DNA of 64,000 nt from an uncultured Alphaproteobacteria bacterium (lineage in GTDB: Bacteria > Pseudomonadota > Alphaproteobacteria > JAJFIK01): positions 3,730 through 67,729 of the forward strand of contig CAZTCJ010000009.1 of NCBI GenBank assembly GCA_964612085.1. The letters are read 5' to 3'. The position numbers were made by a program, and so were the translations under genes. Below, one piece after another: positions 3,101 through 58,153 of the stretch. Within the stretch, counting starts at the first letter, position 1; each line of letters starts with the position of its first letter. The notes under the pieces are model-generated. The model worked only from the letters and a program-made list of their open reading frames with translations. It made no database searches and was not told the DNA's origin.

Positions 3101-4071
3101 GCGACAGGTCAGGCAAGGTGCCTTCGACGGGAAAGACGAGCCTCGCGGAAACCGTGAGCCAGTCGGCGCACAAGCATATCGAGGCCTTTCTGGAAATGCT
3201 GAGCGCGGAGCGGGGCGCTGCGGGCAATACGCTCGAAGCCTATGCCCGGGACCTGCGCGATTTCGGGCATTTCATCGCCCGGCAAGGCCAGGAAATCATG
3301 AATGCGCGGGCGGAAGATCTGCGCGCCTATCTGCGCAGCCTGGAACAGGCGGGCATGGCCGCCTCGACCGCCGCGCGGCGCATGTCGTCCCTGCGCCAGT
3401 TCCATAAGTTTCTGTACACGGAAGGCATCCGCCCCGACGATCCGTGCCTGGGCCTCAGCGGCCCGCGCCCGCGCCGCGCCCTGCCCCGCACCATGAGCGA
3501 ACGCGATGTGGAACGGCTTCTGGAAAAAGCGCGGGAAGACCGGACGCCGGAAGGCCTGCGGCTGTATTGCCTGATGGAGATCCTCTACGCCACCGGCGCG
3601 CGGGTCTCCGAACTGGTCGCCCTGCCCTTGAATGCGGTGGCTCACGATCCTCGCTTCCTGATGATCACGGGCAAAGGCGGCCGCGAGCGCCTGGTGCCGC
3701 TCAACCAGACGGCCGCCGACGCCCTCGGCGCGTACAAGACCGTCCGCCACCGGTTCGTGCCCCAGCGCAGCCGTGACTCGCGCTTTCTGTTTCCGTCCCG
3801 GGCCCGCCAGGGTCACCTGACCCGCCACCGCTTCGCCCAGCTTCTGAAGGATCTGGCCGCCCGCGCCGGGATCGAACCGGACTCCCTGTCACCGCACACC
3901 CTGCGCCATGCCTTTGCCAGCCACCTGCTGGCCAATGGGGCCGACCTGCGCGCCGTGCAGAAAATGCTCGGCCATGCGGATATCTCCACCACCCAGATCT
4001 ATACCCATGTGCTGGAGGAGCGGCTGAAATCCCTGGTCCGCCAGCATCATCCCCTGGCCCAGAAGGGTTGA
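3097..4071 (+). CDS. xerD: site-specific tyrosine recombinase XerD
   Basis: C-terminal catalytic box HTLRHAFASHLLANGADLRAVQKMLGHADISTTQIYTHV and an N-terminal core-binding domain (HIEAFLEMLSAERGAAGNTLEAYARDL). Confidence 0.9.
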   Translation: MSDRSGKVPSTGKTSLAETVSQSAHKHIEAFLEMLSAERGAAGNTLEAYARDLRDFGHFIARQGQEIMNARAEDLRAYLRSLEQAGMAASTAARRMSSLRQFHKFLYTEGIRPDDPCLGLSGPRPRRALPRTMSERDVERLLEKAREDRTPEGLRLYCLMEILYATGARVSELVALPLNAVAHDPRFLMITGKGGRERLVPLNQTAADALGAYKTVRHRFVPQRSRDSRFLFPSRARQGHLTRHRFAQLLKDLAARAGIEPDSLSPHTLRHAFASHLLANGADLRAVQKMLGHADISTTQIYTHVLEERLKSLVRQHHPLAQKG

Positions 4072-39553: not shown

Positions 39554-39629
39554 GGGGCCGTAGCTCAGTTGGGAGAGCGCAGCAATCGCACTGCTGAGGT
39601 CAGGGGTTCGATTCCCCTCGGCTCCACCA
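39554..39629 (+). tRNA. tRNA-Ala (anticodon CGC)
   Basis: Hand-folded 76-nt cloverleaf: acceptor GGGGCCG/CGGCUCC with the G3:U70 alanine identity pair, anticodon stem CAGCA/UGCUG, loop AUCGCAC, T-loop UUCGAUU, encoded CCA. Confidence 0.95.
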
Positions 39630-39870
39630 TCCGATCCGACGGTGCGCAGCACCGGCAAATCGACCTGGTGGGTCGATTTGAGGAGAGGATGCCCCGAGCC
39701 CTGCGAGGGGCCTGAACAACCAAACAGCTTTAGCGCCGACTTTCCTGCCCTCTTTTGCTTCATTCGGCTTGCGCGGCTTACCCGCCGGTTGCACACTCAA
39801 ATATGGGGGGGACTGCGGCTCTAGTCTTGAGCATGCGCCCAAACTTTATGCTTAAAATTGCAGGGCGCGC

Positions 39871-41001
39871 ATGCCGAATTTCGAAACCTGGGGCCCGGAA
39901 GAATGGACCGTCGTTGCACGGTTCGTTGGTGCTTTCGCGCAAGTCATTCTCGCTGTCGGCGCCTTGATCGGCGGCGTGTGGGCTGTGATCACTTATAGCC
40001 GAAACCGCCGTTTTCAGGCTGCAAACTGGCTGAAAGATCTCTTCAAAGACGTTTACCTTAACGACTACTTCAATAAAGCCCGCTCCAGGATCGAGTATAA
40101 CTTTATGGAAGAAGTCGCGCCAGTTCTACAAAAACGCATTACAAACCGATCCATCCCAACAAATGAAAGAGAGCAGAACTTACTACTGGAAATCGACAAC
40201 TTTCTAAACATGTTCGAAGTTATTTTGTATTTAAGGGGAAATAGACAAATAAAAAGATCAGATATGTTTTCTGTATTTCGTTATTGGTTCTATGATCTGA
40301 TAAAACGCGAAGAGCATGCCTTATTGCGCAGTTATATTCTTGAGTTTCACTTCAAAAGTATTTCAGATTATGTCGACGAAGCCCAACAAGAACATGACTA
40401 TATTTTCGTCTACGGATTATTTCGGGAAAAAGAGTTCCAGAAACACTGGTCCGACTGCCTCGATTTCGAAAAAGCGAAGCCGGCCGTGGCAAGGGGTTCG
40501 ATCTATCACGCGAAGGCCAACAGTCCCGTCGCGAAGAGAACCGGCGGGGAAACCCGCAGCCCTCATGGATTTCCCTTCCTAATTTATGCGGCCAATGAGG
40601 ACGATCCCTCTTATGGCGTCGTGCACGGCGAAGCCGTTCCTATCCGAAAAGGGATGCGCCACAGGATTTTACAACGCATGGATGACCAGGAGGGGTATCG
40701 TCCGAATGAAGAAGCCGATTGCCCTTTGATTCGCCGCCGGATCCGGGTCCGCATGCCGCGCCCGGGTGTGGAAAATCCGCAGATCGATGTCGATAAGCAT
40801 TGGGAGCTTGTTGATGCGTGGTTATATATATTCAATCGCTACAGCGCGCAGTTCATGCCCACACAGCCTATCTTTGAGGATCATGTCTCGCTGAGCCTGC
40901 AAGACAGCGGACCGGATTCATACACGAAGATCCTCAAAGGCGACTGGATCAGTTATTTGGAGACCCTGAACCTGAATACCGGGGATTACAGAAAAACATG
41001 A
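39871..41001 (+). CDS. membrane-anchored protein: N-terminal TM + helical domain fused to a divergent GGCT/YtfP-like (gamma-glutamyl cyclotransferase fold) domain
   Basis: TM segment VVARFVGAFAQVILAVGALIGGVWAVI. C-terminal half aligns by eye to E. coli YtfP-type motifs: YIFVYGLFREKEF (vs FVYGSLR), VVHGEAVPI (vs VHGEVYRI, catalytic Glu), LQRMDDQEGY (vs LDxxEG), VDAWLYIF (vs AWMYVY). AT-rich codon usage. Confidence 0.75.
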   Translation: MPNFETWGPEEWTVVARFVGAFAQVILAVGALIGGVWAVITYSRNRRFQAANWLKDLFKDVYLNDYFNKARSRIEYNFMEEVAPVLQKRITNRSIPTNEREQNLLLEIDNFLNMFEVILYLRGNRQIKRSDMFSVFRYWFYDLIKREEHALLRSYILEFHFKSISDYVDEAQQEHDYIFVYGLFREKEFQKHWSDCLDFEKAKPAVARGSIYHAKANSPVAKRTGGETRSPHGFPFLIYAANEDDPSYGVVHGEAVPIRKGMRHRILQRMDDQEGYRPNEEADCPLIRRRIRVRMPRPGVENPQIDVDKHWELVDAWLYIFNRYSAQFMPTQPIFEDHVSLSLQDSGPDSYTKILKGDWISYLETLNLNTGDYRKT

Positions 41002-41495
41002 AGACCGCATCAGGCAATTCCGAAAAGCAATATTTGTTCCTATACGGATCCTTGCGACAAGGCCAGACCGACTTCGAAACGCTCGATCTCGGACAATATC
41101 TGGATTTTGTCGGCGAACGGTCGATGAAAGGATATCTCTACGATCTCGGCGCCTATCCTGGCGTCAAGCTAAACCCTTCGGAAGAAGAAAAAAAGAAGGG
41201 CTTGAAGGACGAGGTCAAAGGGGAACTTTTCGAGATCCGGGACAAGAAAGTGCTGACGACGCTTGATGCGTTTGAGCGCTTCGATGAGGAAAATCAAAAG
41301 GACTCTCTTTATATTAGGGTTGAAGTAGACGCTCTTGGTCCTGACGGAGCCCCCGCATGGACATATGAGTACAATCAGCCGATCGGCCCTAAACAACAAG
41401 CTGTCAAAGGCGGCGACTGGTTAAAGCACTTACGGAATAGGGAAGAGAAAAAGGCATCCGCCGAAAAGCGCCCCCTCATTGAGCGCAAAGCGTGA
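40998..41495 (+). CDS. gamma-glutamyl cyclotransferase-fold protein (GGCT/GGACT/YtfP-like)
   Basis: Canonical motifs LFLYGSLRQG, GYLYDLGAYPGV, VKGELFEI, LDAFERF...SLYIRVEV, PAWTYEY. ATGA overlap with the upstream ORF. Confidence 0.85.
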   Translation: MKTASGNSEKQYLFLYGSLRQGQTDFETLDLGQYLDFVGERSMKGYLYDLGAYPGVKLNPSEEEKKKGLKDEVKGELFEIRDKKVLTTLDAFERFDEENQKDSLYIRVEVDALGPDGAPAWTYEYNQPIGPKQQAVKGGDWLKHLRNREEKKASAEKRPLIERKA

Positions 41496-41508
41496 TGCCG
41501 GGGGCGAC

Positions 41509-42825
41509 ATGATACCGACAATTGGCCTGGAAGAAGAATTCTTCCTGATTGACGATAAGCTCTCCCCGCCTTTTGAGACCCGCAGATCCAAAATCGATGC
41601 TCTTGTTGAGTATCTAAATGAACAGCACAAAGAGGTTTGCGTTATACAGCGCTGTCCTGCGAATCCGGAAGAGTTCGGAAAAATTCCGGAACATTTCGAA
41701 CGTGAGCTTTTTTCTTGCATCATTGAACTCAAGACCGATTATCACTGGCAACTCGACCGGGTCTGGAACAGCCTGACCAGGCTGCGCAACGGTCTTGCGC
41801 AAGGCGCTTTGCATCATCAGTTCGAAGTTTTGGCGTCGGGCAGTCATCCTTTGGCCGACTGGCGCTGTTACAAAATGACGGGTGCGAAGAGAACCCCCCA
41901 TTTGCAAAATCTTTTTGGGGAACGATTCTTTGTGTGTGGCCTGCACGTCCATGTGGGCTTGGACAAAACGGACCGGGAAGGGCTCATTTGGCTGCTTCAA
42001 ATCTTCCGACCTCTACTGCCATTGTTCCTGGCCCTGACGGCCTCGTCACCCTTTTGGCGTGGCCACAATGCCCGCATGGCCTCCTGCCGCAGTTCCATTT
42101 TTGCGTCCATTCCCCGTGGGGGGCTCCCGCCGAAACTGCAGCGGTACAGGGAATTTGACGCTTATATGGAGGGTCTAAAAACCTTCGCAAAACCGCGCTC
42201 TCCAAAGGAACCGAAAGAGCTCAAGCAACCCCAATGGCTCGCGCGGCCCAGTATCCGGTTTCCGACGATCGAGATCCGCATCATGGATGCCTGCATCAAG
42301 GCCACGGACAGCATGGCCTTAGCCGCACTAATCCAAACGATTGCTCTGTTCGCCCAGTCTTTCCGCAATCCGCTTCTGCGTCTGCCCGGCAGCGTACCCG
42401 TTGTGGGACGGCGACTGGGGCGCAGAGCACATTTTATTCAGCTTTTGCAATCGCAACCGGATCAACTGATCGATGAAAACTTGTGGCGAGCAGCCCGGTT
42501 CGGTCATGATACGGAATTTATTTTCTCAATCCCCAACGACAGCGGGCGCACATCGTCGTATACGGTCAAGGATCTGTTAGACCGGATCATGACAATCTGC
42601 GATCCTGAGATAAACCAGTTGGGGAATCGGCCATGGCTCGATCCGATTCGAGACATTCTTGAATACGGCCCCTGCTTTAAATCTCAAGTGGACTTCTATA
42701 TTTGTCACAAACGAGAAACGCAGGACACAAGAAAAGCGCTTCAGGCCGTAACGCGAGCCCTGATCGATCGGACCATGGCGGAATTGTCCATGGGCGACCC
42801 GCAAACCGCTACGCAAACACGGTAA
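41509..42825 (+). CDS. carboxylate-amine ligase, glutamate-cysteine ligase family 2 (GCS2/YbdK-like)
   Basis: Matches YbdK along its length by eye: TIGLEEEFFLID, CIIELKT, GSHPLADW, FVCGLHVHVGL, LALTASSPFWRGHNARMASCRSSIF, RPSIRFPTIEIRIMDA. The ATG at 41509 lies 13 nt after the upstream stop. The track's TTG start at 41479 would overlap by 17 nt. Confidence 0.85.
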   Translation: MIPTIGLEEEFFLIDDKLSPPFETRRSKIDALVEYLNEQHKEVCVIQRCPANPEEFGKIPEHFERELFSCIIELKTDYHWQLDRVWNSLTRLRNGLAQGALHHQFEVLASGSHPLADWRCYKMTGAKRTPHLQNLFGERFFVCGLHVHVGLDKTDREGLIWLLQIFRPLLPLFLALTASSPFWRGHNARMASCRSSIFASIPRGGLPPKLQRYREFDAYMEGLKTFAKPRSPKEPKELKQPQWLARPSIRFPTIEIRIMDACIKATDSMALAALIQTIALFAQSFRNPLLRLPGSVPVVGRRLGRRAHFIQLLQSQPDQLIDENLWRAARFGHDTEFIFSIPNDSGRTSSYTVKDLLDRIMTICDPEINQLGNRPWLDPIRDILEYGPCFKSQVDFYICHKRETQDTRKALQAVTRALIDRTMAELSMGDPQTATQTR

Positions 42826-42960
42826 AGCTGCATCGAAACCAATGATAAAAGACTGCATCCTCTTTACGTTTGCGATATGTGCCGTTACCGCCTGCGCCGC
42901 GCCATCCGCAGATCTGCCGCCGCCGGAGCCCCGGCCCTGACCGTGTCAGCCCCCCGCACC

Positions 42961-43881: not shown

Positions 43882-44562
43882 ATGCGCACGCTTATCACCA
43901 TCGGCATTTTGCTGTTGGTCATCGTGGTGGGCGGCCTCGCCCTGATCTATTCGTTCCGCGACCCGCTTCTGAAAGCCAGCATCGAGCAGATCGGCTCGGA
44001 TGCCTCGGGCACGGCGCTGACCATCGGCGGTCTGGAGACCGACCTGGTCGAGGGCGAAATCGTCATCTCTAATCTGGAGATCGACAATCCCAGCGGCTTT
44101 TCGCCCAACACGGCCATCACGATCCCAACGATCCGCATGCAAATGGACCTGGGCAACAGCCCGGCGGGCACCATCGTCTTCCAGGATATCCGCGTCGGCC
44201 CGCCCGACATCCTGTTCGAGATCGCGGGCGGCACCAGCAATATCGAGAAACTGCGCCAAAATATCGAGGATTACGGCCTGTCCCAACGGGGCAGCACGAG
44301 CAGCGGTAATTCCTTCATTGTGGAAACACTGCGGATCGACGAGGGAACCATCACGGTGCGGATCGCCGACACGGAACCCGACACTTTGAGCCTGCCCGCC
44401 TTCAGCATGGAGGATCTGGGCAATGAGACGAGCGGACCGTTGAGCGGGCCCATGCTGACCGCCAAGGTGTTGAACGAGATCGCGCGCCGGGTGGTCGATC
44501 AGATCGCCAAAAGTCCGTATCAGCAGCGGTTCAACGCCCTTATGGGCGCGACGCCGTTCTGA
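43882..44562 (+). CDS. N-terminally anchored periplasmic hypothetical protein
   Basis: TM anchor LITIGILLLVIVVGGLALIY, then a beta-rich domain. GGAGGAACAGGTC precedes the ATG, and a hairpin follows the stop. Confidence 0.65.
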   Translation: MRTLITIGILLLVIVVGGLALIYSFRDPLLKASIEQIGSDASGTALTIGGLETDLVEGEIVISNLEIDNPSGFSPNTAITIPTIRMQMDLGNSPAGTIVFQDIRVGPPDILFEIAGGTSNIEKLRQNIEDYGLSQRGSTSSGNSFIVETLRIDEGTITVRIADTEPDTLSLPAFSMEDLGNETSGPLSGPMLTAKVLNEIARRVVDQIAKSPYQQRFNALMGATPF

Positions 44563-44582
44563 CCCGGCCATAAAACGCTTCT

Positions 44583-44629
44583 TCGGAAAAGAAAACGGGT
44601 CCACCGGCGCGGCCGCCGGCAGACCCGTT
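44583..44629 (-). terminator. strong intrinsic terminator (minus strand), with the hairpin shared by the convergent plus-strand gene
   Basis: AACGGGUC-ug-CCGGCG-gccg-CGCCGG-ug-GACCCGUU, followed on the minus strand by UUCUUUUCC. On the plus strand it is followed by AUUCCU only. Confidence 0.7.
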
Positions 44630-44852
44630 ATTCCTAGGACGTTTCCGCCAAAAAACGTCCAGGCCCCCCGTGGTGGTACGCCACCCCTGGTGCCATCCGA
44701 CCGGACCAACCCCGAGACGGTCCGGCTCCCCCGGATTCGGAAAATTCTGTGTGGACGAGAAGCGGGAGCGGCAGTGAGGTGAAGGGGGTCGCAACGGTAA
44801 CCACCGCCCCCGCCTGTGACGCGGCAAGGTACGCATGCCACGACGTCCACAT
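44583..44852 (-). ncRNA. candidate sigma54-dependent structured RNA (about 270 nt, family unknown)
   Basis: Bounded by a perfect sigma54 promoter and an intrinsic terminator. Contains an 8-bp long-range stem (44844-44851 with 44750-44757), hairpin GGACGUUU/AAACGUCC (44637-44660) and several GC stems. No ORF with a credible SD. Confidence 0.45.
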
Positions 44853-44862
44853 GTCCCTTAAT

Positions 44863-44877
44863 GGCAAGGGGTGTGCC
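44863..44877 (-). promoter_or_regulatory. sigma54 (RpoN) -24/-12 promoter
   Basis: The minus strand reads TTGGCACACCCCTTGCC, i.e. TGGCAC-N5-TTGC with exact consensus spacing. Confidence 0.65.
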
Positions 44878-45031
44878 AAACGGAGGCGGCGCCGGAAATT
44901 CCGTGTTAACCCGTTGAGTTTACAGTAAAACTTTAAATCGTACGGAAATCAGGGCGGATCTGACAGGCCCCCGGTTCGCGGCACGCACTGCAAATTGCAA
45001 CGCAGCCTGCCCAACTCTGCGGGATGACACG

Positions 45032-45448
45032 ATGAAAACCCTTGCCGCGACGGCCGTTCTGGCGCTCTTGCTCGCTTTTGCATGCCCTCAGGCTCAGGCC
45101 GCCGGCGCCAATGCCGGCCAGACCGGCAAAAGCGGCGCGACGGTCAATTTCGTTTCCCTGGAGCCGTTTCAGGTGACCGTCTTCGCGCGCGGACGCCCGC
45201 GCGGCGTTCTGGTGGTCGATATCGGCCTGGAAATCAACGACCCTGCGGCGCGCCGCTACGCCCAGGCCGCTCTGCCGCGCCTGCGCGATCAGATCCTGCG
45301 CACCTTGAACGCCATGGCGACCCGGTCCATCCCCATGCACAAGCCCGTCGCCGTGGAGCGCATCGCGAACCGCCTGCAAGGCATCGCCGACAGCTATACG
45401 CAAGGCATCGATGTTCTGCTGGTCAATGTGGTGCTGCACGGACGATAA
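45032..45448 (+). CDS. small exported protein, FliL-like pattern (tentative)
   Basis: Signal peptide MKTLAATAVLALLLAFACPQAQA. FVSLEPFQVTVF...VLVVDIGLEINDP...LPRLRDQILRTL resembles the FliL C-terminal domain. Confidence 0.55.
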   Translation: MKTLAATAVLALLLAFACPQAQAAGANAGQTGKSGATVNFVSLEPFQVTVFARGRPRGVLVVDIGLEINDPAARRYAQAALPRLRDQILRTLNAMATRSIPMHKPVAVERIANRLQGIADSYTQGIDVLLVNVVLHGR

Positions 45449-45451
45449 GCG

Positions 45452-46396
45452 TCAAGGCAGATCAGTCTGCTCACTGACGCCATCGGTGCCGAACAGCAGC
45501 GCGCCGCCTTCAGCGCGAGGCAGCACGAAGGACAGGTCCTGACGGTCGGCCCGGTGAAGCGCCGCGAAGCGCCGCCCGCCGTCGCGGCTCACCGCCACCG
45601 CGCCGCCGAGACCCGCCAGATAAACCGTCCCGTCCCGGACGAGCCCACCGGACAGGGACTGGCGCGTGCCGCTCTCCACCTTGGTCCAGCTCTCGCCCAG
45701 ATCCTCCGAACGCCACACATTACCGCGCATGCCGTGCACTAGAATGGCACCATCGGGTAAGACAAGTCCGCCCCAGAAGGACCCCTGATAACCGGTCTCC
45801 AGCGCCGTGAACGTCTCTTCGCCCAGAGCGCGCCGATAGACCGTGCCGAACTCGGCGGCGATGAACCAGGCCCCTTCGGGCCCCTCGAAAACGCCGTTCA
45901 GATGATCATCCGTCTCCGCCTCATCGCTCAGGCTACGCTCACGCCAGGTCTCGCCGCCATCGGCCGTTTCCAGAAGAAGCGAGAACGCGCCCACGGCGAC
46001 CCCCTGGCCGTTTCGGTTCAGCGCGACGGACAGAAGCGGCGCATCGGCGTCACGGTCCCGGTACTGAACGGTCCAGGTCTCTCCCGCATCGTCCGTTTTC
46101 AGGATCACCGCGTCATGGCCGGTGGCCCAGCCCCGGCGGTCATCGGCAAAGAATACGCTTGTCAGCAGCACATCCACGGGCACCGACTGCGCGGGGCGCC
46201 AAGTTTCTCCGTCATCGTCGGACAAGAGGATGCGCCCACCCTCGCCCACGGCGACGATGCGTCCGTCCGCCCGCGCGGCGTGGATCAGCAGGCCGTCTTC
46301 GGCCGGCCCGGCCCGCACGGCTCCTCCGGCGGCCAGCAACAGACCGATCGAGACGGCGACCCGTGCAACGGAGGCCATGGCGCTCAGGCGGATCAC
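45452..46396 (-). CDS. BNR/Asp-box beta-propeller protein (Ycf48/photosystem II stability factor-like)
   Basis: Repeated SxDxGxTW boxes (SDDDGETW, TDDAGETW, TADGGETW, SEDLGESW, SRDGGRRF) and a signal peptide. Start is either GTG at 46396 (GTGA overlap with the upstream stop) or ATG at 46378. Confidence 0.8.
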   Translation of the reverse strand: MIRLSAMASVARVAVSIGLLLAAGGAVRAGPAEDGLLIHAARADGRIVAVGEGGRILLSDDDGETWRPAQSVPVDVLLTSVFFADDRRGWATGHDAVILKTDDAGETWTVQYRDRDADAPLLSVALNRNGQGVAVGAFSLLLETADGGETWRERSLSDEAETDDHLNGVFEGPEGAWFIAAEFGTVYRRALGEETFTALETGYQGSFWGGLVLPDGAILVHGMRGNVWRSEDLGESWTKVESGTRQSLSGGLVRDGTVYLAGLGGAVAVSRDGGRRFAALHRADRQDLSFVLPRAEGGALLFGTDGVSEQTDLP

Positions 46397-47766
46397 CGCA
46401 CACCGAGACGGCGCAGACGGCTCGGCTGATAACGGTCGGCATCGAGTTCATCGGCGAAATAATCGAGCGGCGTCTGCTCGTTGCGCAAGGCGATGGCCAG
46501 GTAGCGCCCGTTCTGCAGGTCATAGACCATTTCCGCGCCGGAACCGCACAGCGGCACATGATAATAATTGACCGTATGCAACTCCTGGACCCGCCACAGC
46601 TCTCCGCGCCCGTCGTAAAGCTCCGCCGCTACAAGCTGCGCCGCATCTTCGTCGAAATATTTCACCCGGCGATGATAGATATGCCGTGTGCTGTCTTTCA
46701 AGGTCGCTTCCACCTGCCAGACCCGGTGCAGCTCATAGCGCACATGGTCCTGGTTCAGATGCGAGGCCTGCAGCAGGTCCTCGATGGGCACCAAGGCGGC
46801 ATCGTAATTGTTATAGGCGATGAATTTCTCGCTCTTGCCCACCAGCCGCCAGTCATAGCGGTCCGGCGCACCGTTGAAGCCGTCGAAGGAATCCGCCGTG
46901 GACAGGGCATCGGTATTCGTCCCCGGATTATCGTAGGCGATGTTCGGCGCCCGGCGCACCCGGCGCGTGCCCGGACTATATTGCCAGGCCGCCCGGTCCT
47001 GGACCGACTGGTTGATGGTCTCGTGCACCAGGATAATATTGCCCGCCGCCCGCGCCGGCGCGATCGTGTTGGAAATAAAATAGATCGAGACATTGTCGAG
47101 CTGATCGACGCTGGAAAAGGCCGGGTTCGACCAGTTGATAATGGCCTCGTCCTGAACGATCTGAAGCGTGTAATCGCCCGAGCGCGTCACCGGCGCGGCG
47201 GCGAATTGCCGGGACAGTTTGAAGCCCCGATAGCGCAGCGTATGGTTCCAGACGAGTTCCAGCCCCTGGGACGGCACGGGAAAGGGCAGACCGTAAGTGG
47301 TGCCCTCCAGGCCATTGCCGTCGGGCACCAGCCGCGTGCCCTGGGCCGTGCGTTCGTTGGCCTCGTAGAACGAGTCCGGAAAGGCGCAGGAGCGCCGCGT
47401 GGGATAGATATCCATGCGGAAGGCCGGATAGGTCTCCAGCATCGCCCGATAGCCGGGCGTGAGCTTGTCCGCATACTGCGCCATGTTCTCGGCGGTGACC
47501 GTGAACAAGGGACGGTCGGCGCTGAACGGATTGGGATGGAGATCCGTTTCCGGATCGAACGCGATCCCTTCAGGAATGCCGGTCAGACCGCCGGTCCAGG
47601 CGGGGATGGTACCCTCGGTATTGCCCGCTTTTTCCGAGCCCATGGGCGTGAGATCCCGGCCCAGCCGCGCCGCGACCTCAGCGGGCACATCGGCGAGGGC
47701 TGCTGTCAGAGACGCGCCAAGCCCGATGGCGGGCACCAGAGCCAGGACGAAAAAGCGCTTCATGGT
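46393..47766 (-). CDS. DUF1329 family (LolA-like fold) periplasmic protein
   Basis: Signal peptide MKRFFVLALVPAIGLGASLTAALA, then LTPMGSEKAGNTEGTIPAWTGGL, the family-typical N-terminal motif as I remember it. Confidence 0.75.
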   Translation of the reverse strand, partial: TMKRFFVLALVPAIGLGASLTAALADVPAEVAARLGRDLTPMGSEKAGNTEGTIPAWTGGLTGIPEGIAFDPETDLHPNPFSADRPLFTVTAENMAQYADKLTPGYRAMLETYPAFRMDIYPTRRSCAFPDSFYEANERTAQGTRLVPDGNGLEGTTYGLPFPVPSQGLELVWNHTLRYRGFKLSRQFAAAPVTRSGDYTLQIVQDEAIINWSNPAFSSVDQLDNVSIYFISNTIAPARAAGNIILVHETINQSVQDRAAWQYSPGTRRVRRAPNIAYDNPGTNTDALSTADSFDGFNGAPDRYDWRLVGKSEKFIAYNNYDAALVPIEDLLQASHLNQDHVRYELHRVWQVEATLKDSTRHIYHRRVKYFDEDAAQLVAAELYDGRGELWRVQELHTVNYYHVPLCGSGAEMVYDLQNGRYLAIALRNEQTPLDYFADELDADRYQPSRLRRLGVR

Positions 47767-47776
47767 GCATCCCCTT

Positions 47777-49855
47777 TTAAAAGGCATAGGACAGGCTGAC
47801 GGAAATGGTGTCCCGGTCGGTGAGCCGGTTACGCTCTGCCGCGCCGAAGAAATTCAGATACTGAACATTGGCTTGCCAGCGGTTCTGATAGTCAGCCGTC
47901 AAACCGACGCCCACCTGCCCTTGCCCTGCGACAAAGCCCGGACCGTACGGCCCCGGGGAGCGGCCACGGACATCCTTGCGCACGGCGACGGAAGGCGACA
48001 GGCTCCAGGCGGTGTTGGCGATATTGTTGTACTGGCTGGCGATGACGAAACGGTAGCCCGCCGAGAACTTACTGGCGCATTTCAGATTGGTCTTGGCGCT
48101 GGTGCCGCTGGCGAGCGTCAGGGCCGTGGCCAGGTTGGGGTGACCGAATTCGCAGCCGGGCGCCGTCACCACGGTTTCGTTCAGGTCCGGAAGATCCGGC
48201 ACCCACATGAACCCGGTATTGAAAATCACCGTGGTCTGGTCCGCGCCCAGCTTCGCCGCCGGGAGATCGGATCCGGCGAAGATCGTGATGGAGGAGAGCT
48301 GACCGGTAATCGAGTCTTCCCGGGTGAACGCCTCGAAGACATCACCCAGGCCGCGATTGGAGGATCCCACCGCGTAAGGCGTGCCCGTGGTCGCCGCGAC
48401 CGCCGCCAGTCCCGCCGGAATGGCCGACGCCCCGCCATAGAACGTATAGGCGTCGAGCAGGAGCGGCGCACGGACCAGTTCGCCCGCCGGAATGGGGCTC
48501 GTGTCGGAATCCAGAATGCGCGCATTGATCTCGCTGTCGGAGAGTTGCAGCGGCAGATCCGGCCAATAGGCGACCTCGCCCGCGAAGGCGGTGCCGAACA
48601 GTTCCGTATTGAAGCTGGCGCCCCAGATCTCGATATCGTCCGGGAAATCGAAACCATAGCGGCCCTGATTGACGCTGACCGCGAACGCCACGGGCGCGAA
48701 GGTCAAGGGATCCCCGACGCAGGATTGCGGACCGCCGTCATAGCCATCGGGGATCGCGCCCAGAAGGCCGAGATTATCGCAGGTGGTCTCGAAATTGTCC
48801 GGCGGCGCCTGGAAGGTCAGATAAGGCAGGGTTGACGAGAAATTGACGTAATAGGCCTGAAGCTCCGTTCCCTGATTGAGCCAGTCGGCATAATAGCTGA
48901 GCCCCACGCCCCAGGCGCCGTCATCCTGGCCCAGATCGGAGAACCGTTTCTGCACGATGGGCGCGATGTCCCGGTCGTCCGGGCGGCCCAGAATCACGAA
49001 GGAGCCGCCAGCGCCCGCGAAATCGGCGACGGAATAGAACGAGCGCGCCTGATCGATTTCGGTCTCCACATGCTCCCACTGGTAAAAACCCTGAACGTCG
49101 AGGCCCGGCACGATGCCCACCTGGGCATAGACCGCGGGCACCGGCAGCAGGCCCTCGCGCACTTCCGCGCCCGGCGCCCGCAGGCGCGAGACTTCGACCG
49201 GCAGATAGGAATTGATGCCGCCCTGAATCAGCAGGCTCTCGCCCCAGTTCACGGCCTGATTGCCGACCCGCAGGGTGACGGGAATATCGGCCACATCGAA
49301 ATTGGCGGTCACGAAGGCATCGAGCACCAGGAATTCGTTCGCCAGATCGTCCTGGGCCTCGCCCGCCAGATCCTTGAACGCCAGATTGTTGCGGTCGTAC
49401 ACCGTGTCGTGGAAGCTCAAAGTGCGGACGAACAGGCTGAAATTCCGCCACACCGCCTCGATATCGGTGGTGGCCTTGAACCGCGAGTTCACCAGATTGC
49501 CGGAGTCGAAATTGAGCGCGCCGTCGTCCTGGTTAATGCTGCGAGTGATCGTCCGCAGGCCCCCGGCCGGGATCGGATCGCCGATCGCATTAACGCCGCC
49601 GCCGGCGATCGGTATGCCGAAATCGGGCAGCCGACGCCCGAAATAACAGCCGCCATTGGCCGGATTGACGTTGGTGCAATCGGTTTCCTGGATGCTGAAA
49701 GACGAGCCGTAGGACAAGGTCGTATCGACCGACAGGCGAACCTCGCCGATTTCGAAATCACGGGCCTGGACACCGGGCGCGGCCAGAACGAGGACCGCAC
49801 ACGCCAGGACCGGACCGCCGATCAGCGCTCCCCGGCAAACGGGCTGAGACGACAT
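47777..49855 (-). CDS. DUF1302 family outer-membrane beta-barrel protein
   Basis: Signal peptide, alternating beta-strand pattern, C-terminal ...VSLSYAF (terminal Phe). Start chosen at MSSQPV (49855), with GGAGGG 7 nt upstream. Confidence 0.75.
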   Translation of the reverse strand: MSSQPVCRGALIGGPVLACAVLVLAAPGVQARDFEIGEVRLSVDTTLSYGSSFSIQETDCTNVNPANGGCYFGRRLPDFGIPIAGGGVNAIGDPIPAGGLRTITRSINQDDGALNFDSGNLVNSRFKATTDIEAVWRNFSLFVRTLSFHDTVYDRNNLAFKDLAGEAQDDLANEFLVLDAFVTANFDVADIPVTLRVGNQAVNWGESLLIQGGINSYLPVEVSRLRAPGAEVREGLLPVPAVYAQVGIVPGLDVQGFYQWEHVETEIDQARSFYSVADFAGAGGSFVILGRPDDRDIAPIVQKRFSDLGQDDGAWGVGLSYYADWLNQGTELQAYYVNFSSTLPYLTFQAPPDNFETTCDNLGLLGAIPDGYDGGPQSCVGDPLTFAPVAFAVSVNQGRYGFDFPDDIEIWGASFNTELFGTAFAGEVAYWPDLPLQLSDSEINARILDSDTSPIPAGELVRAPLLLDAYTFYGGASAIPAGLAAVAATTGTPYAVGSSNRGLGDVFEAFTREDSITGQLSSITIFAGSDLPAAKLGADQTTVIFNTGFMWVPDLPDLNETVVTAPGCEFGHPNLATALTLASGTSAKTNLKCASKFSAGYRFVIASQYNNIANTAWSLSPSVAVRKDVRGRSPGPYGPGFVAGQGQVGVGLTADYQNRWQANVQYLNFFGAAERNRLTDRDTISVSLSYAF

Positions 49856-49970
49856 GCGGATACCCTCCTGAACCGTTGCGACGCACGGGACGCGCTGCGC
49901 CCCGACCCCGCACATCACACGCTCAGGGTGTTGAGGATTTGTTATCGTCGGCACAAAGATCGAATTTTAG

Positions 49971-50918: not shown

Positions 50919-51419
50919 TTATTGATCGTCTTTCGGACCGCCCCTGCGGGGGCCGTGGCGCCGGTGGAACCGGCCGCGCAGCGCCTGCACTTCCTCGCGC
51001 GTGATCGCGCCGTCGCCATCCGCATCGACGCGGGCGAATAGACGCTCCGTACGCGCATTCATTTCCTCGGCTGTCAAGAGGCCGCTGCCATCTTCATCGA
51101 GATCCTGGAAGGCATCGACCATGCGCCGGCGCTGCATCTCGATCCACATGCCCTCGAACTCATCGAGGCTCAAGGCGCCGTCCCGGTCGCCGTCATGGGT
51201 GCGCAGGCTTTCCGCGCGCTTACTGTCCACCTCAGTGCGCGAAACCGATTCGTCCTGATCCGTATCGAACCGTTCGAACAGTCCCCGGATCATTTTACCG
51301 GGATGGCCGCCTTGGGGGCCCCGGGCTTCCGCCATGGCGACAACGCCGATGGCGGCCAGGGTACCGCCCGTCAGCACAGCGATCAGGGTCATGTGTTTCT
51401 TGCCAGTCGTGCGTGTCAT
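50919..51419 (-). CDS. exported EF-hand calcium-binding protein
   Basis: Signal/anchor segment, then four EF-hand loops: DTDQDESVSRTE, DGDRDGALSLDE, DEDGSGLLTAEE, DADGDGAITREE. Confidence 0.8.
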   Translation of the reverse strand: MTRTTGKKHMTLIAVLTGGTLAAIGVVAMAEARGPQGGHPGKMIRGLFERFDTDQDESVSRTEVDSKRAESLRTHDGDRDGALSLDEFEGMWIEMQRRRMVDAFQDLDEDGSGLLTAEEMNARTERLFARVDADGDGAITREEVQALRGRFHRRHGPRRGGPKDDQ

Positions 51420-51610
51420 AATCGTTCCGTCTCCTCATGTTTCGGATCGCCGGTCCTGGGATCCGTCCGGGTGACAGAAAACACCGCATCTGTCGCGGGA
51501 CCGTCCCGCGAGAGGGAAAAAATGTCTCAAAGCCACCGCAGCCGGAGGCGTGACATGCTTTGTTACAGATTGCCCCAGAGCCGCCCGGAGCGGTGTGCTA
51601 GATAGGTTTC

Positions 51611-52330
51611 ATGAGCGAACCGGCACACATTCTCGTGGTGGACGATCACCGGGATATCCGCGACAGCCTGGCGCGTCTGCTGCGCGAGGCGGCTTATCGC
51701 GTGTCCGTGGCCGAAAACGCGTCCGCCGCCCGGCGCATCCTGAAGACCCATCGGATCGATTTGGCTTTGCTCGACATCATGATGCCCGGCGAGGACGGAC
51801 TGTCCCTGTGCCGGTCGATCGCGGAAGGTGCCGCCATTCCCATCATCCTGCTGACCGCCCGCACGGAGGACACCGACCGGATCGTCGGCCTGGAGATGGG
51901 GGCGGACGATTACGTCACTAAACCGTTCAATCCGCGCGAACTGCTCGCCCGCGTCAAGGCCGTCCTGAGGCGGACCAACAGCCTGCCGCCCCATCAGCGC
52001 CCGCCGGACCGGGAGCGGATCCAGTTCGACGGTTGGACGCTCAACGTGCCGGAACGCGCCCTGGTGGGACAGGACGGTATCGCCCGGCCCTTGAGCACAG
52101 GCGAATTCCGCCTGCTGATGGCCTTCCTGACCCATCCGCGCATGGTCCTGAGCCGCGACCAGTTGCTTGACCTGACCCAGGGGCGCGATGCCACGGCCTT
52201 CGACCGCAGCATCGACAATCAGGTCTCCCGGCTGCGCCGCAAGATCGAACCGGACCCGAAAACGCCGCGTCTGATCAAGACCGTCTGGGGCGGCGGCTAC
52301 AGTTTTTCCGCCGATGTGAAGCAGCCATGA
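51611..52330 (+). CDS. OmpR-family response regulator
   Basis: Receiver domain (ILVVDDH...LDIMMPGEDG), winged-helix output (LSTGEFRLLMAFL...VWGGGY). Confidence 0.9.
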   Translation: MSEPAHILVVDDHRDIRDSLARLLREAAYRVSVAENASAARRILKTHRIDLALLDIMMPGEDGLSLCRSIAEGAAIPIILLTARTEDTDRIVGLEMGADDYVTKPFNPRELLARVKAVLRRTNSLPPHQRPPDRERIQFDGWTLNVPERALVGQDGIARPLSTGEFRLLMAFLTHPRMVLSRDQLLDLTQGRDATAFDRSIDNQVSRLRRKIEPDPKTPRLIKTVWGGGYSFSADVKQP

Positions 52331-53733
52331 TCGCCCGCGCCTTGAAAGCCTTGATCCCGAAAAGCTTTACCGGCCAGCTCGTGCTCTTGATCGTGGCCAG
52401 CCTGATCCTGACCCAGGCGATCCTGGTTCTGATGTTCGCGCTGGAGCGCCGCCATACGGTGGAGGCCTGGATCCGCACGGAAATCACCAACCGGATCGCC
52501 GACACGGCCGAGCGACTCCACACAGAGGATCCGGAACGCCACGAGCTGGTCCTGCGCGCCTTGTCGAGCCGGCGGCTCCAGTTCCGTCTGGGCCCGCCTC
52601 GTTTCGAAGTGCCGGCCGGGCAAAACCCGGTGCTCCAGAAGAACACTCTGGTCGAAGCGCTGGAAGCCCGGGGATTGACGCCGGTCAGCGTCGAGACCGG
52701 GCGCTCACTGCGCCGCCCGCACAGGCGGGATGGCCGTCCGCCGCCGGACAAAGACGGCATGCCCGGCCCGCACCGGGGGCCCATGCACGCTTTCGCCACC
52801 ATCGATCTGGGCGGCGGCCTCGTCTTCACGGCCCATTGGCGCCATTGGGTGGGCATCCCGCCCTGGAACCGGGGGGTCCTGACAACGACCCTGGTTTCCG
52901 TGCTGGTGTTAATCGGCGTCGTGGTGCTGGCCGCGCGGCGCATCAGCGAGCCGTTGCGGGACCTGACCCAATCGGCGGACCGCGCCGGTGCGACCGGGCT
53001 TCTGGGCCGTGTGCAGACGCCGCCCGTGCCTGAGCGCGGCCCCGACGACATGCGCCGCACCATCAGGGCCTATAACCGCATGGGAGAACGGCTGAGCAAT
53101 CTGCTCGATCACCAGCGGCGCATGCTGGCGGCGGTCGGGCACGATCTGCGCACGCCCATCACGGCCCTGCGGCTGCGCGCTGAATTCGTCACTGACGAGG
53201 ACAACCGCACCAAGATGATCCGCATACTGGACGAAATGCAGAGCATGACTGACGGCATCCTGTCCCTGGTGCGCGAAGACATCGAGGAAGAAGCGCCCGT
53301 GCCCACCGATCTTGCCGATCTGGTGGACAGCATCGTGGGAGACTTCCAGGATCTGGGCTCAGATGTGCGGATTACCATATCCGAGCCGGCGGTGGCGGTC
53401 TGCCGCCCCGTGGCTTTGGCGCGGGCCTTGCGCAATCTCATCGAAAATGCCGTGCGTTATGGCGAGCGCGCCCGCGTGCGGCTCAGCGCGGACGAGCGAA
53501 CCGCCACGATCCTGATCGATGACGATGGGCCGGGCCTGTCGCGGGAGGACCTGGAGACCGTCTTTGAGCCCTTCGCCCGGCTCGAGACCTCGCGCAGCCG
53601 GGAGACCGGCGGCCTCGGCCTCGGCCTCACAATAGCCCGAAGCCTGATCGATCTTCACGATGGTTCGCTTATTTTGGAAACCCGGCCCGAAGGCGGTTTG
53701 CGGGCCGCCGTCACTTTGCCCTTGAAACGATGA
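52327..53733 (+). CDS. sensor histidine kinase (2 TM, HAMP, HisKA, HATPase_c)
   Basis: H box AAVGHDLRTPIT, N box NLIENAVRYG, G1 DDDGPG, G2 GGLGLGL. ATGA overlap with the regulator gene. Confidence 0.9.
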   Translation: MIARALKALIPKSFTGQLVLLIVASLILTQAILVLMFALERRHTVEAWIRTEITNRIADTAERLHTEDPERHELVLRALSSRRLQFRLGPPRFEVPAGQNPVLQKNTLVEALEARGLTPVSVETGRSLRRPHRRDGRPPPDKDGMPGPHRGPMHAFATIDLGGGLVFTAHWRHWVGIPPWNRGVLTTTLVSVLVLIGVVVLAARRISEPLRDLTQSADRAGATGLLGRVQTPPVPERGPDDMRRTIRAYNRMGERLSNLLDHQRRMLAAVGHDLRTPITALRLRAEFVTDEDNRTKMIRILDEMQSMTDGILSLVREDIEEEAPVPTDLADLVDSIVGDFQDLGSDVRITISEPAVAVCRPVALARALRNLIENAVRYGERARVRLSADERTATILIDDDGPGLSREDLETVFEPFARLETSRSRETGGLGLGLTIARSLIDLHDGSLILETRPEGGLRAAVTLPLKR

Positions 53734-54515
53734 CCGGCGCCATGATCCGTCTCCTGGTGATATTGACCGTGCTTCTCGGCCTCGCCACCCCGGCGGCGAG
53801 CGAGACCAGCATCCGGCTGGCCCAAGGGGCGCGGGGCGAGACGGCGGTCGGCCGCATCATCACGCCGAAAGGCCCGATCTGCACCGGCGTCCTGATCGGG
53901 CCGTATACGGTGCTGACCGCGGCCCATTGCCTGACCACCCGCGCGGGCGACGGCTATTTCTCCCCCGGCCTCATTCATTTCGCGCTTTATCCGCCCCAGG
54001 GCGGGCAGCTTTACGCCAAAAGCGCCGAGACCCACATCAATCCGGCCTACACGCTGCCGGTCGGGACGCATCCGGATCAATTGCGCCAGGACTGGGCCGT
54101 GCTGGTTCTGGAAGATCCCCTGGGCGAGACCGTGCGGCCCGCGACGCTTCTGACCGCCGCGCAGTTCGGCCAGGCGGAAGGCTGGCCGCTCAAGGTCGTG
54201 GCCTATGGCATGGCGCGCACCCTGCGGCCCACCGTTCATGCCCAGACCTGCAGGCTCCTGGAGCGGGACAGCGATTTGATCCGCCATTCCTGCCGGGTCC
54301 AGCCCGGCAGTTCCGGATCGGTGCTGCTCGCCACCCACCAAGGGGAAACCTTCGCCGCCGCCGTCAATGTGGCGGCCCGGCTGACCGGCGCGGGCCAGAC
54401 CTCGGCGGCCCTGTTGCCCGACTCCGTGGCCGAGCTGAGCGCGCTTAAGCCCCAAAGCCCGGACCGCTTCGTCAGCCCGTTCGAGCGCTCGGGCTCTGCC
54501 TCCTGGAACCGGTAA
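53730..54515 (+). CDS. secreted trypsin-like (S1) serine protease
   Basis: Signal peptide. Catalytic triad contexts LTAAHC, DWAVLVL, GSSGS. ATGA overlap with the kinase gene. Confidence 0.75.
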   Translation: MTGAMIRLLVILTVLLGLATPAASETSIRLAQGARGETAVGRIITPKGPICTGVLIGPYTVLTAAHCLTTRAGDGYFSPGLIHFALYPPQGGQLYAKSAETHINPAYTLPVGTHPDQLRQDWAVLVLEDPLGETVRPATLLTAAQFGQAEGWPLKVVAYGMARTLRPTVHAQTCRLLERDSDLIRHSCRVQPGSSGSVLLATHQGETFAAAVNVAARLTGAGQTSAALLPDSVAELSALKPQSPDRFVSPFERSGSASWNR

Positions 54516-56470: not shown

Positions 56471-56671
56471 ACAGACGACCCTGTAGCAAAAACACGCCTG
56501 TTTTAGACGGTTTGTGAGTTTTCCGTACAAACCGTAACTAGCCGCCGTTTCCATTCCGATGGTACCGACGCCATTGGCAAGACCCTTGGGAAACCCGAGG
56601 GGAGGGGGAAACGCGTGCCGATGGACGGGGCGCGTCCATGTTTTAAATGCTGGATCTCAGGGGAGCCTTTC

Positions 56672-58153
56672 ATGGCTGACGTAACCTATCTTATGCCGTT
56701 CAACGCATTCGACCTCGATGCCTTGAACATCGAATTCGACGAACCGTTCGTTGAAACGATTTCCAATATGCAGGCTGTCGTGGGCTATGAAGGCACCATG
56801 CGGCTGACCCGCGCGACGGGCACGAACTTCGCATTCGAAGGCGCGCCGAATACGGATGATTTCAAGATCACCGGCGGCACGGTCAACAGCTTCGAACTGC
56901 TCGAAGACATGAGCACCACCTCGGTCGATATCAGCGGCCTCAATATCGATCTGACGGATGTGGCCAAGCTGATCGAAAAGAAGCCGGTCGAAAAACTGTT
57001 CGATGAATTCTTCGAAGGCGACGACACGTTCACCGGCTCCATGATGAATGACGGCATCATTTCCGGCGACGGCAATGACGGCATCGTGTCCGGCATGGGC
57101 GACGACACCATCGACGCCGGCAAGGACGACGATACGATCGAAGGCGGCGAAGGCGATGACACGATCGGCGGCGGCAAGGGCGACGACACCGCTGTCTATC
57201 AGGGCATGCGCGACGATTTCGACGTGGTCGTGATCGACAAGAGCACCGTTCAGGTGACCGACCTGCTGACCGAAGAAACGCTTGACGAAGGCGCCGACAC
57301 GCTCACCGATATCGAATTCATTCAGTTCATGGACGTTCTGCTCAATCTCGATACCGGCGGCATTTCGCCTGTGGGGTCGGAAATGAGCGAAACCCTCGAA
57401 GGATCCGAATTCGACGACATCCTGAACGGTCTGGGTGGTGACGATATCATCAACGGCAATGCCGGACGCGACCTGATCGACGGCGGCGAAGGCAACGACA
57501 CCCTCGACGGCGGCGACGACAAGGACGAAATGTTCGGCGGGCTCGGCGATGACACTTACATCATCGGCAAAGGCGACAAGATCTTCGAGAATGCCGGCGA
57601 AGGCACGGACACCGTGCAGGCGGAAGGCAACATCAAACTCGACGATAATTTCGAGAATGCCGTGCTGATGGCCTCCGAGAAGGGCAAAGGCAAGGTCAAG
57701 GGCAACGACCTCGACAACGTGATCACCGGCAGCGCCGACGAGGAGAAGCTCGACGGCCGGGACGGCGATGACACCATCGACGGCGGCGAGGGCGACGACC
57801 GGATCAGGGGCGGCGACGGCGGCGACATCCTGATGGGCGGCAATGGCGAGGACGACCTCGACGGCGGCGACGGCGGCGACATCTTCGTGTTCGACGATGA
57901 CGGTGCGGGCGATATCGACACCATCAGGGATTTCGAGATCGGCGTCGACACCATCGACCTGAGCGGTCTGCCCAACTTCACCGGCTTCGATGCGGTGGCC
58001 GCGAATGCGGTCGATGACGGCAAGAATGTCATCCTGACCGGCATGGATGGCGGCCAGCTCGTCATTGCCAAGACGAGCTTCGAAGAGCTGAGCGCGACGG
58101 ACTTCACCTTCGCGCCGGTTATCGAAATCATCGAGGAAATTTCCGTTCTCTAA
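56672..58153 (+). CDS. RTX-type calcium-binding repeat protein (probable T1SS substrate)
   Basis: Many GGxGxDxux nonapeptides (GGEGDDTIGGGKGDDTA, GGEGNDTLDGGDDKDEMFGGLGDDTY, GGEGDDRIRGGDGGDILMGGNGEDDLDGGDGGDIF). Acidic, no Cys, no signal peptide. Start at MADVTY, with GGGGAG upstream. Confidence 0.8.
   Translation: MADVTYLMPFNAFDLDALNIEFDEPFVETISNMQAVVGYEGTMRLTRATGTNFAFEGAPNTDDFKITGGTVNSFELLEDMSTTSVDISGLNIDLTDVAKLIEKKPVEKLFDEFFEGDDTFTGSMMNDGIISGDGNDGIVSGMGDDTIDAGKDDDTIEGGEGDDTIGGGKGDDTAVYQGMRDDFDVVVIDKSTVQVTDLLTEETLDEGADTLTDIEFIQFMDVLLNLDTGGISPVGSEMSETLEGSEFDDILNGLGGDDIINGNAGRDLIDGGEGNDTLDGGDDKDEMFGGLGDDTYIIGKGDKIFENAGEGTDTVQAEGNIKLDDNFENAVLMASEKGKGKVKGNDLDNVITGSADEEKLDGRDGDDTIDGGEGDDRIRGGDGGDILMGGNGEDDLDGGDGGDIFVFDDDGAGDIDTIRDFEIGVDTIDLSGLPNFTGFDAVAANAVDDGKNVILTGMDGGQLVIAKTSFEELSATDFTFAPVIEIIEEISVL
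57065..57900 (+). repeat. coding tandem repeats (RTX nonapeptide blocks)
   Basis: Three clusters of GGCGACGAC/GGCGGCGA-rich 27-nt periodic units within the RTX ORF. Confidence 0.7.

Follow-up and report, generated by a model that had tools for sequence, protein, structure and literature searches.

The locus described here raises the question of whether a 469-bp gap between two plus-strand genes holds a complete and independent gene for a regulatory RNA, and of how such an RNA would be switched on and would act. The gap belongs to a 64-kb stretch of DNA, which is called the window below. A first-pass annotation made from the sequence alone had proposed that the minus strand of this gap encodes a structured, apparently non-coding RNA of about 270 nt. 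Comparison with four homologous loci establishes the anatomy of the RNA gene, its structure and its lack of coding capacity. The proposed fold and the non-coding nature of the RNA are thereby borne out, but sequence conservation is confined to the first ~105 nt. The whole RNA gene fits within the gap, and its parts are listed in Table 1.

The same gene is present in four other contigs. Three of these (L001, L005 and L006) are MAGs titled “uncultured Alphaproteobacteria bacterium” from project SRP128890, and the fourth (L008) is an unlabelled JGI metagenome contig with ~52% GC, compared to ~64% GC in the other loci, a difference of about 12 points. The DUF748-like protein encoded next to the RNA gene has a single database homologue, which is 40% identical and is found in L001 (MAG CAZHDI01), where the gap downstream of the DUF748-like gene carries the RNA element. 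A 20-nt word from the RNA core, scanned exactly over 185,579 genomes (one per species) in a search that would miss divergent members, occurs in three of these species representatives, namely L004 (the same contig as L001), L005 and L006. A scan of JGI metagenomes with this core word yielded no true match. One candidate from that scan, L007, lies inside a coding region without surrounding similarity and was rejected as a chance match. The fifth locus was reached with a pseudo-protein, made of the joined stop-free translations of the core and searched against a protein collection, which matched a “hypothetical protein” (P0003) encoded in L008. P0003 (L008 3799-4101, plus strand) is an open reading frame called across the enhancer, the promoter and the RNA core, and it is almost certainly mis-annotated.

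The covariance model R1, built on the core, detects a single copy in each genome fragment, and no further copy turns up in the window or the other loci. R1 also matches truncated copies on two short Logan contigs from the same organisms, and a Logan contig from run SRR6462991 links the window to the SRP128890 MAGs. A scan of viral contigs and a BLAST search of plasmids gave no homologue. The search with the FliL-like protein encoded on the other flank gave none either, and neighbour synteny could not widen the family. No publications were found on SRP128890, SRR6462991 or the JGI sample. As judged by the exact 20-nt word, the known range of the gene appears to be very narrow, with four GC-rich genomes and one lower-GC relative. 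The first-pass annotation had made its proposal depend on conservation in relatives, and four other loci carry the element.

The flanking genes vary among the five loci. In the window and in L005 (two of the five loci), the RNA gene and a FliL-like gene are divergently arranged; L001 and L006 have a gene for a short-chain dehydrogenase on the upstream side, and L008 has an ABC transporter upstream and a yggT-like gene downstream on the same strand. The downstream convergent gene is DUF748-like in the window and in L001, and is an unrelated, different open reading frame in L005. Because the flanks differ while the promoter, RNA and terminator stay together, these three behave as one portable unit, and the RNA gene is best read as an independent gene. 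In the window, the claim that only the 3′ end of a convergent gene lies downstream agrees with the orientation of the next gene. A flagellar link through the FliL-like neighbour was considered and rejected, since the Pfam score of this protein is under threshold and the adjacency is seen in two of the five loci only. A motif scan found no rpoN gene and no gene for an enhancer-binding protein (GAFTGA) within the 64-kb window, and no bEBP or luxO-like gene is present in the flanks of the homologous loci examined.

Table 1. Features of the RNA gene and its surroundings, in window coordinates unless another locus is named.
Feature	Position	Strand	Remarks
DUF748-like gene	43882-44562	+	Convergent to the RNA gene, beyond its terminator
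Intrinsic terminator	44583-44629	-	16-pair stem 44629-44594, then UUUUCUUUU
Variable 3′ domain	44630-44740	-	Three to four hairpins; four GC-rich loci
A/U-rich single-stranded linker AGAAUUUU	44741-44748	-	After P1; A/U-rich stretch in five of five loci
Conserved RNA core, three-way junction	44749-44852	-	RNAalifold consensus of five loci
P1 stem (8 bp)	44851-44844 with 44757-44750	-	Predicted fold
Hairpin a	44842-44820	-	Loop UGCGUACCU at 44835-44827
Hairpin b	44815-44760	-	16-bp stem, 24-nt invariant loop at 44799-44776
Invariant stretch, 35 nt GCGGUGGUUACCGUUGCGACCCCCUUCACCUCACU	44773-44807	-	Identical in five of five loci
Predicted transcription start, A	44852	-	12 nt beyond the C in the -12 GC
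sigma54 -24/-12 element TGGCACACCCCTTGC	44864-44878	-	Exact TGGCAC-N5-TTGC
IHF-like site ACTCAACGGGTTA	44907-44919	-	One mismatch to WATCAANNNNTTR
Upstream activator site (putative), 19-bp dyad GCGTTGCAATTTGCAGTGC	44985-45003		Sequence given for minus strand; consensus GCRTTGCA-W3-TGCAAYGC
Weakly FliL-like gene	45032-45448	+	Divergent, other flank of the gap
EF-hand/regulator/kinase/protease cluster	50919-54515; L001 5971-9551		Whole cluster
Partial cluster	L008 3-1875; L006 220-750		Regulator and EF-hand protein in L008; EF-hand protein only in L006

The promoter is recognizable as a -24/-12 element of the sigma54 type. The exact pattern TGGCAC-N5-TTGC has one match in the 64 kb, with 0.15 expected by chance, and the pattern TGGCAC/T-N5-TTGC is kept in all five loci, 12-13 nt ahead of GUGGACG. 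The exact element had been recognized in the first-pass annotation, with coordinates (44877-44863, minus strand) that are off by one from the true ones (44878-44864). From the usual sigma54 geometry, transcription would start at 44852, and it is at this predicted start that sequence conservation begins in all loci. Elsewhere in the window, the sole other near-match to the sigma54 pattern is TGGCGCGGGCCTTGC at 53417-53431 (plus strand), which has one mismatch and lies inside a histidine kinase gene. One-mismatch near-matches are not above chance in the window, with two found and 5.3 expected.

Upstream of the promoter lies a 19-bp dyad, the putative activator site. From its centre at 44994 it is 117 nt to the -24 GG and ~142 nt to the predicted start. 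The palindrome TGCAAATTGCA at 44989-44999, which was known from the first reading of the window, is part of this dyad and falls within a 13-bp site with one mismatch to TTGCAWWWTGCAA. With at most one mismatch, TTGCAWWWTGCAA has a single site in the window, with 0.11 expected. The dyad occupies the same place in all five loci, and the dyad and promoter pattern are found nowhere else in the window or the fetched loci (~95 kb of DNA). The distances from the dyad centre to the -24 GG in the five loci are 117, 116, 129, 118 and 116 nt. The outlier of 129 nt is L005, in which the dyad is 11-12 bp farther from the promoter, or about one helical turn. This shift would keep the dyad on the same face of the helix, as expected if the activator has to remain on one side of the DNA.

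Between the dyad and the promoter is the IHF-like site. The distance from its CAA to the -24 GG is 39 nt in the window and 38-40 nt across the five loci, and in a four-locus alignment its core, CAAnGGnTTA, is invariant within an otherwise unconserved spacer. L008 carries a perfect IHF consensus, TATCAAATGGTTA. One-mismatch IHF matches are not significant as lone motifs (8 found in the window, 13.4 expected), and what argues for this candidate site is its conserved position in the other loci. The spacers between the promoter motifs have 51-61% pairwise identity. The enhancer-IHF-promoter layout read from the window recurs in five loci, where the -24/-12 element, the IHF-like core and the dyad are retained at much the same distances from one another; the reading of ACTCAACGGGTTA at 44919-44907 as one mismatch from the IHF consensus also holds, and the position of its core is conserved. 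A further palindrome that had been noted at 44894-44902, GGAAATTCC, is present but conserved in no homologue; it was rejected as a regulatory site and is probably a chance occurrence.

The transcribed region begins with the most conserved part of the locus. The core is 100-105 nt long, with 87-92% pairwise identity between loci, compared to 51-61% in the promoter spacers, 40% in the DUF748-like protein and 76-77% in the protein of a nearby response regulator. Its consensus fold contains 35 pairs, and 97.7% of cells are paired compared to 34-66% when the partners are slid. The 8-bp stem that had been proposed between the 5′ end and 44750-44757 is found as P1 in this fold. The loop of hairpin a has 9 nt and is invariant (UGCGUAYCU), and the proposed seed, CCCCCUUCACCUC, sits in the 35-nt invariant stretch, in the 24-nt loop of hairpin b. 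A 17-nt part of the invariant stretch occurs once in the window, even when three mismatches are allowed.

In the five loci, every stem substitution in the core retains pairing and both loops are unchanged. Four pairs have changed in both partners: hairpin a has one U-A/C-G and one C-G/U-A exchange, and hairpin b has two of the G-C/A-U type. Several one-sided G-U changes also keep the pairing in the core stems. The covariation is modest, as it comes from five sequences only, four of them from one sequencing project. The first-pass annotation had suggested covariation as a check, and compensatory changes are indeed found, but in a shuffle control, which five sequences make only moderately strict, their two-sided count of four pairs is reached by 33 of 500 shuffles; the covariation score is reached by 3 of 500. 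The predicted transcript, folded as a 276-nt stretch, is more stable than its shuffled versions, with -138.7 kcal/mol (z = -3.47 against dinucleotide shuffles, of which 1 in 200 is as good).

The linker that follows P1 could conceivably serve as a site for Hfq or RNase E. Beyond the linker, the 3′ domain is 110-150 nt long in the four GC-rich genomes, and the positions of its hairpins are kept while their sequences are 55-61% identical. Its conserved G-rich motifs are GGGGGAGCCG and GGGGUGG...CGGGGGG; L008 has GGGGAG. In L008 there is no 3′ domain, and the terminator comes directly after the core. Because L008 lacks the 3′ domain, only the core is universal. A GC hairpin with a U run is present in all five loci, with a different stem sequence in each. 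In the window, the U run after the 16-pair stem is given as TTTTCTTTT and is found on the RNA’s strand only, in keeping with the long GC hairpin terminator that had been placed at 44629-44583. The predicted RNA is ~268 nt long here (about 44852 to 44585) and ~170-300 nt long across the loci. Right after the terminator of L005 (~3470-3510, minus strand), UUUUUUUUGGGCUCG occurs in tandem with a third, degenerate copy, which may be a slippage duplication of the terminator tail.

Several other features of the window were observed. A cluster of genes located 2-6 kb from the RNA gene encodes an OmpR-type regulator and a histidine kinase, together with a trypsin-like protease and a secreted, calcium-binding protein of the EF-hand type. 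The OmpR-type response regulator has 76-77% protein identity between the window and L001 or L008, and the linkage of the cluster to the RNA gene may be plain synteny or a functional link. Adjoining the FliL-like gene, genes for a BNR/YCF48-like protein, DUF1329 and DUF1302 stand in a row (45452-49954, minus strand). At 39554-39629 (plus strand), the Rfam tmRNA model gives a match of 47.1 bits against a gathering score of 47 bits. The same 76 nt are identified as tRNA-Ala(CGC) by ARAGORN, and the tmRNA match appears to be spurious, produced by the tRNA-like portion of that model. Right after this tRNA-Ala gene is a stretch of low GC (~39800-42900; 43-57% compared to ~64%), which contains a weakly GGACT-like (gamma-glutamyl cyclotransferase) open reading frame and a gene for a GCS2-family glutamate-cysteine ligase. 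This stretch, which does not include the RNA gene, could be a small island of acquired DNA; an integrase was not seen.

With regard to function, we think it fairly probable that the gene encodes a bEBP/sigma54-dependent regulatory sRNA that acts in trans by pairing with the ribosome-binding regions of its targets. We infer transcription, its dependence on sigma54 and an activator, the base-pairing mechanism and the targets. RNA polymerase with sigma54 would occupy the -24/-12 element, and an NtrC-family enhancer-binding protein would bind the 19-bp dyad ~117 bp upstream. An IHF-type bend at CAAnGGnTTA would then bring the activator to the promoter, and the complex would open in response to a signal. 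In the resulting RNA, the three-way junction of the core would display the two invariant loops, and the C-rich CCCCCUUCACCUC loop, held open by the long stem, would pair in trans with purine-rich ribosome-binding regions and change the translation or stability of the target mRNAs. The 24-nt loop contains UCACCUC, a 7-mer that also occurs at the 3′ (anti-Shine-Dalgarno) end of 16S rRNA and is of the kind expected in a seed aimed at ribosome-binding sites, and CCCCCUUCACCUC resembles the anti-Shine-Dalgarno sequence. Target prediction on the start regions of the window and on conserved neighbours gave only GC-driven, non-conserved duplexes, and no convincing conserved target site was found among the neighbouring genes. 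As a separate observation, the start region (56570-56640, plus strand) of a gene for an RTX-type calcium-binding repeat protein (56615-58153) contains the G-rich ribosome-binding stretch GAGGGGAGGGGGAAAC, whose duplex with the invariant loop is among the best predicted (-31.8 kcal/mol) and is a weak lead in GC-rich DNA.

The 35 invariant nucleotides imply a conserved partner, and this partner might also be a protein, in which case the sigma54-driven RNA would be a decoy or sponge, or a ribonucleoprotein scaffold, similar to CrcZ or RsmZ. An invariance of 35 nt with invariant loops of 24 and 9 nt exceeds the needs of a short seed, G-rich 3′ motifs are conserved and recur (GGGGGAGCCG in four loci and GGGGAG in L008), and the absence of a target among the neighbouring genes would also fit. 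However, the RNA has no A-rich repeats of the CrcZ type and no GGA in hairpin loops at conserved positions, the Rfam models of known sponge RNAs do not match it, and L008 does without the 3′ domain, the expected place for such repeats. We therefore regard a protein partner as unlikely. The RNA might also belong to a different functional class, for example as a ribozyme or as part of a conserved cellular machine, with a sigma54 promoter that is incidental; this would account for the very high conservation of the three-way junction and its loops. Such a reading is a poor candidate, and we give it little weight: no Rfam family matches, the narrow spread (3 of 185,579 species representatives, and no true match in the JGI metagenome scan) speaks against a housekeeping function, and tightly signal-dependent sigma54 transcription is typical of conditional regulators.

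Readings without an independent RNA appear weaker still. It is very improbable that the region is a cis element, whether a leader or riboswitch, an antisense regulator of a neighbour or simply a terminator region that belongs to the convergent gene. The stop codon of the DUF748-like gene is 32 nt away from the terminator, which could serve that gene too, but the U run is on the RNA’s strand alone; a yggT-like gene follows on the same strand in L008, but every locus provides the RNA with a terminator, and the gene that comes after it in L008 is unrelated. In the window, L001 and L005, a leader function is excluded because the RNA stops at a terminator of its own and faces a convergent gene. Moreover, the predicted transcript overlaps no neighbouring gene, and no riboswitch family matches. 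The chance that the transcript is a short mRNA, made from the sigma54 promoter for a small protein, is slighter again. Open reading frames of 81, 98 and 355 codons overlap the region, although such frames are common in DNA with 64% GC and neither ORF matches any Pfam family. An AUG is found in hairpin a in four of the five loci, with no Shine-Dalgarno sequence seen before it. The gene caller annotated an ORF over the homologous region of L008 (P0003), but this ORF begins upstream of the enhancer and thus outside any transcript from this promoter, while the only long ORF of L005 begins upstream of the -24 element and is in a different frame relative to hairpin a. ORF ends and lengths vary in every locus, and the 35 invariant bases span all three codon positions, whereas the neighbouring proteins are 40-77% identical. 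A conserved ORF is ruled out because one-base indels at two places within the core shift the frame between loci. The first-pass annotation had itself pointed to a conserved small ORF as the finding that would make the transcript an mRNA, and the loci share no common frame.

The trans-acting sRNA that we favour belongs to no described family. A scan of 44450-45100 against all families of Rfam 15 (cmscan) gave nothing at gathering score, and with E values up to 10 its sole hit was ctRNA_p42d, over 47 nt that resemble a terminator, in line with the earlier failure to assign the RNA to a known family. The locus has the features of the sigma54-sRNA class, namely the promoter spacing, an upstream dyad and IHF-like site, a terminator, structure and no ORF. 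Judged by these sequence features, it is a new RNA family within a known kind of regulator, the sigma54-dependent stand-alone sRNA genes. As an RNA outside Rfam, it would offer annotation pipelines a new family, in a lineage known only from metagenomes. The gene is cleanly delimited, and the sequence by itself reveals a terminator and a seed-like loop as well as the promoter with its bending site and enhancer.

A close comparison is with the Qrr RNAs (RF00378), which are under the control of LuxO~P and sigma54. Like Qrr, the locus is a stand-alone sRNA gene with a -24/-12 promoter, an upstream dyad, its own terminator and a highly conserved single-stranded stretch as the would-be seed. The Qrr model has ~100 nt, four stem-loops and a conserved 32-nt region. 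In contrast, the RNA described here is ~170-300 nt long with a three-way junction, it has no similarity to Qrr in sequence or structure, and RF00378 does not match it at E = 10. An IHF-like site lies between the dyad and the promoter, which is a further difference from Qrr. In addition, Qrr is found in Vibrionaceae together with luxO/luxU, whereas three of the loci described here are in MAGs labelled Alphaproteobacteria and no luxO-like gene is adjacent.

The resemblance extends to the enhancer. The Vibrio LuxO consensus is TTGCAW3TGCAA, located 89-120 bp upstream of qrr starts (PMC11443567), while the dyad here is ~142 nt from the predicted start. The dyad matches this consensus perfectly in L001 and with one mismatch in the other four loci, a likeness at the level of the motif only. 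Fis-type HTH domains of this activator family recognise related half-sites. The LuxO-like enhancer nevertheless provides a concrete hypothesis on the signalling input: the uncultured Alphaproteobacteria might have a phosphorelay module of the LuxO type, with a response regulator of LuxO-like DNA specificity, sigma54 and a non-Qrr sRNA. We consider this module distinctly doubtful. If it exists, the LuxO-to-sRNA design would either be ancient or have arisen anew around a different RNA, and the RNA of these bacteria would act as the master switch, at the post-transcriptional level, of a density-sensing pathway or of a similar pathway of collective behaviour.

Other sigma54-dependent sRNAs of Gammaproteobacteria include GlmY/GlmZ (GlrR/QseF and IHF), CrcZ/CrcY (CbrB), and NrsZ and NfiS (NtrC). 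The predicted layout of the locus follows the scheme of these systems, in which an enhancer-binding protein, in many cases with IHF, acts on a sigma54 promoter that drives a non-coding RNA. Their activator sites are TGTC-N10-GACA for GlrR, TGTTAC-N14-GTAACA for CbrB and TGCACC-N5-GGTGCA for NtrC, and the dyad here is different from all three. None of the Rfam models of these RNAs matches, the alignments and folds contain no repeated A-rich (AANAANAA) or GGA motifs as in CrcZ/CrcY, and there are no modular repeats as in NrsZ. In Gammaproteobacteria, sigma54 sRNA switches control quorum sensing (Qrr), the cell envelope (GlmY/Z) and carbon catabolite control (CrcZ). To our knowledge, few sigma54-dependent sRNAs have been described in Alphaproteobacteria.

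Within the Alphaproteobacteria, the nearest counterparts are AbcR/alpha-r15, NfeR1/alpha-r14 and CcsR. These RNAs have CUCCUCCC-type motifs, usually in two or more loops, and we do not know of any that is transcribed from a sigma54 promoter. Unlike them, the RNA described here has one 24-nt loop with CCCCCUUCACCUC, and their Rfam models do not match it. It does share with AbcR, NfeR1 and CcsR a C/U-rich, anti-Shine-Dalgarno-like motif in a hairpin loop, a Rho-independent terminator and the host class Alphaproteobacteria.
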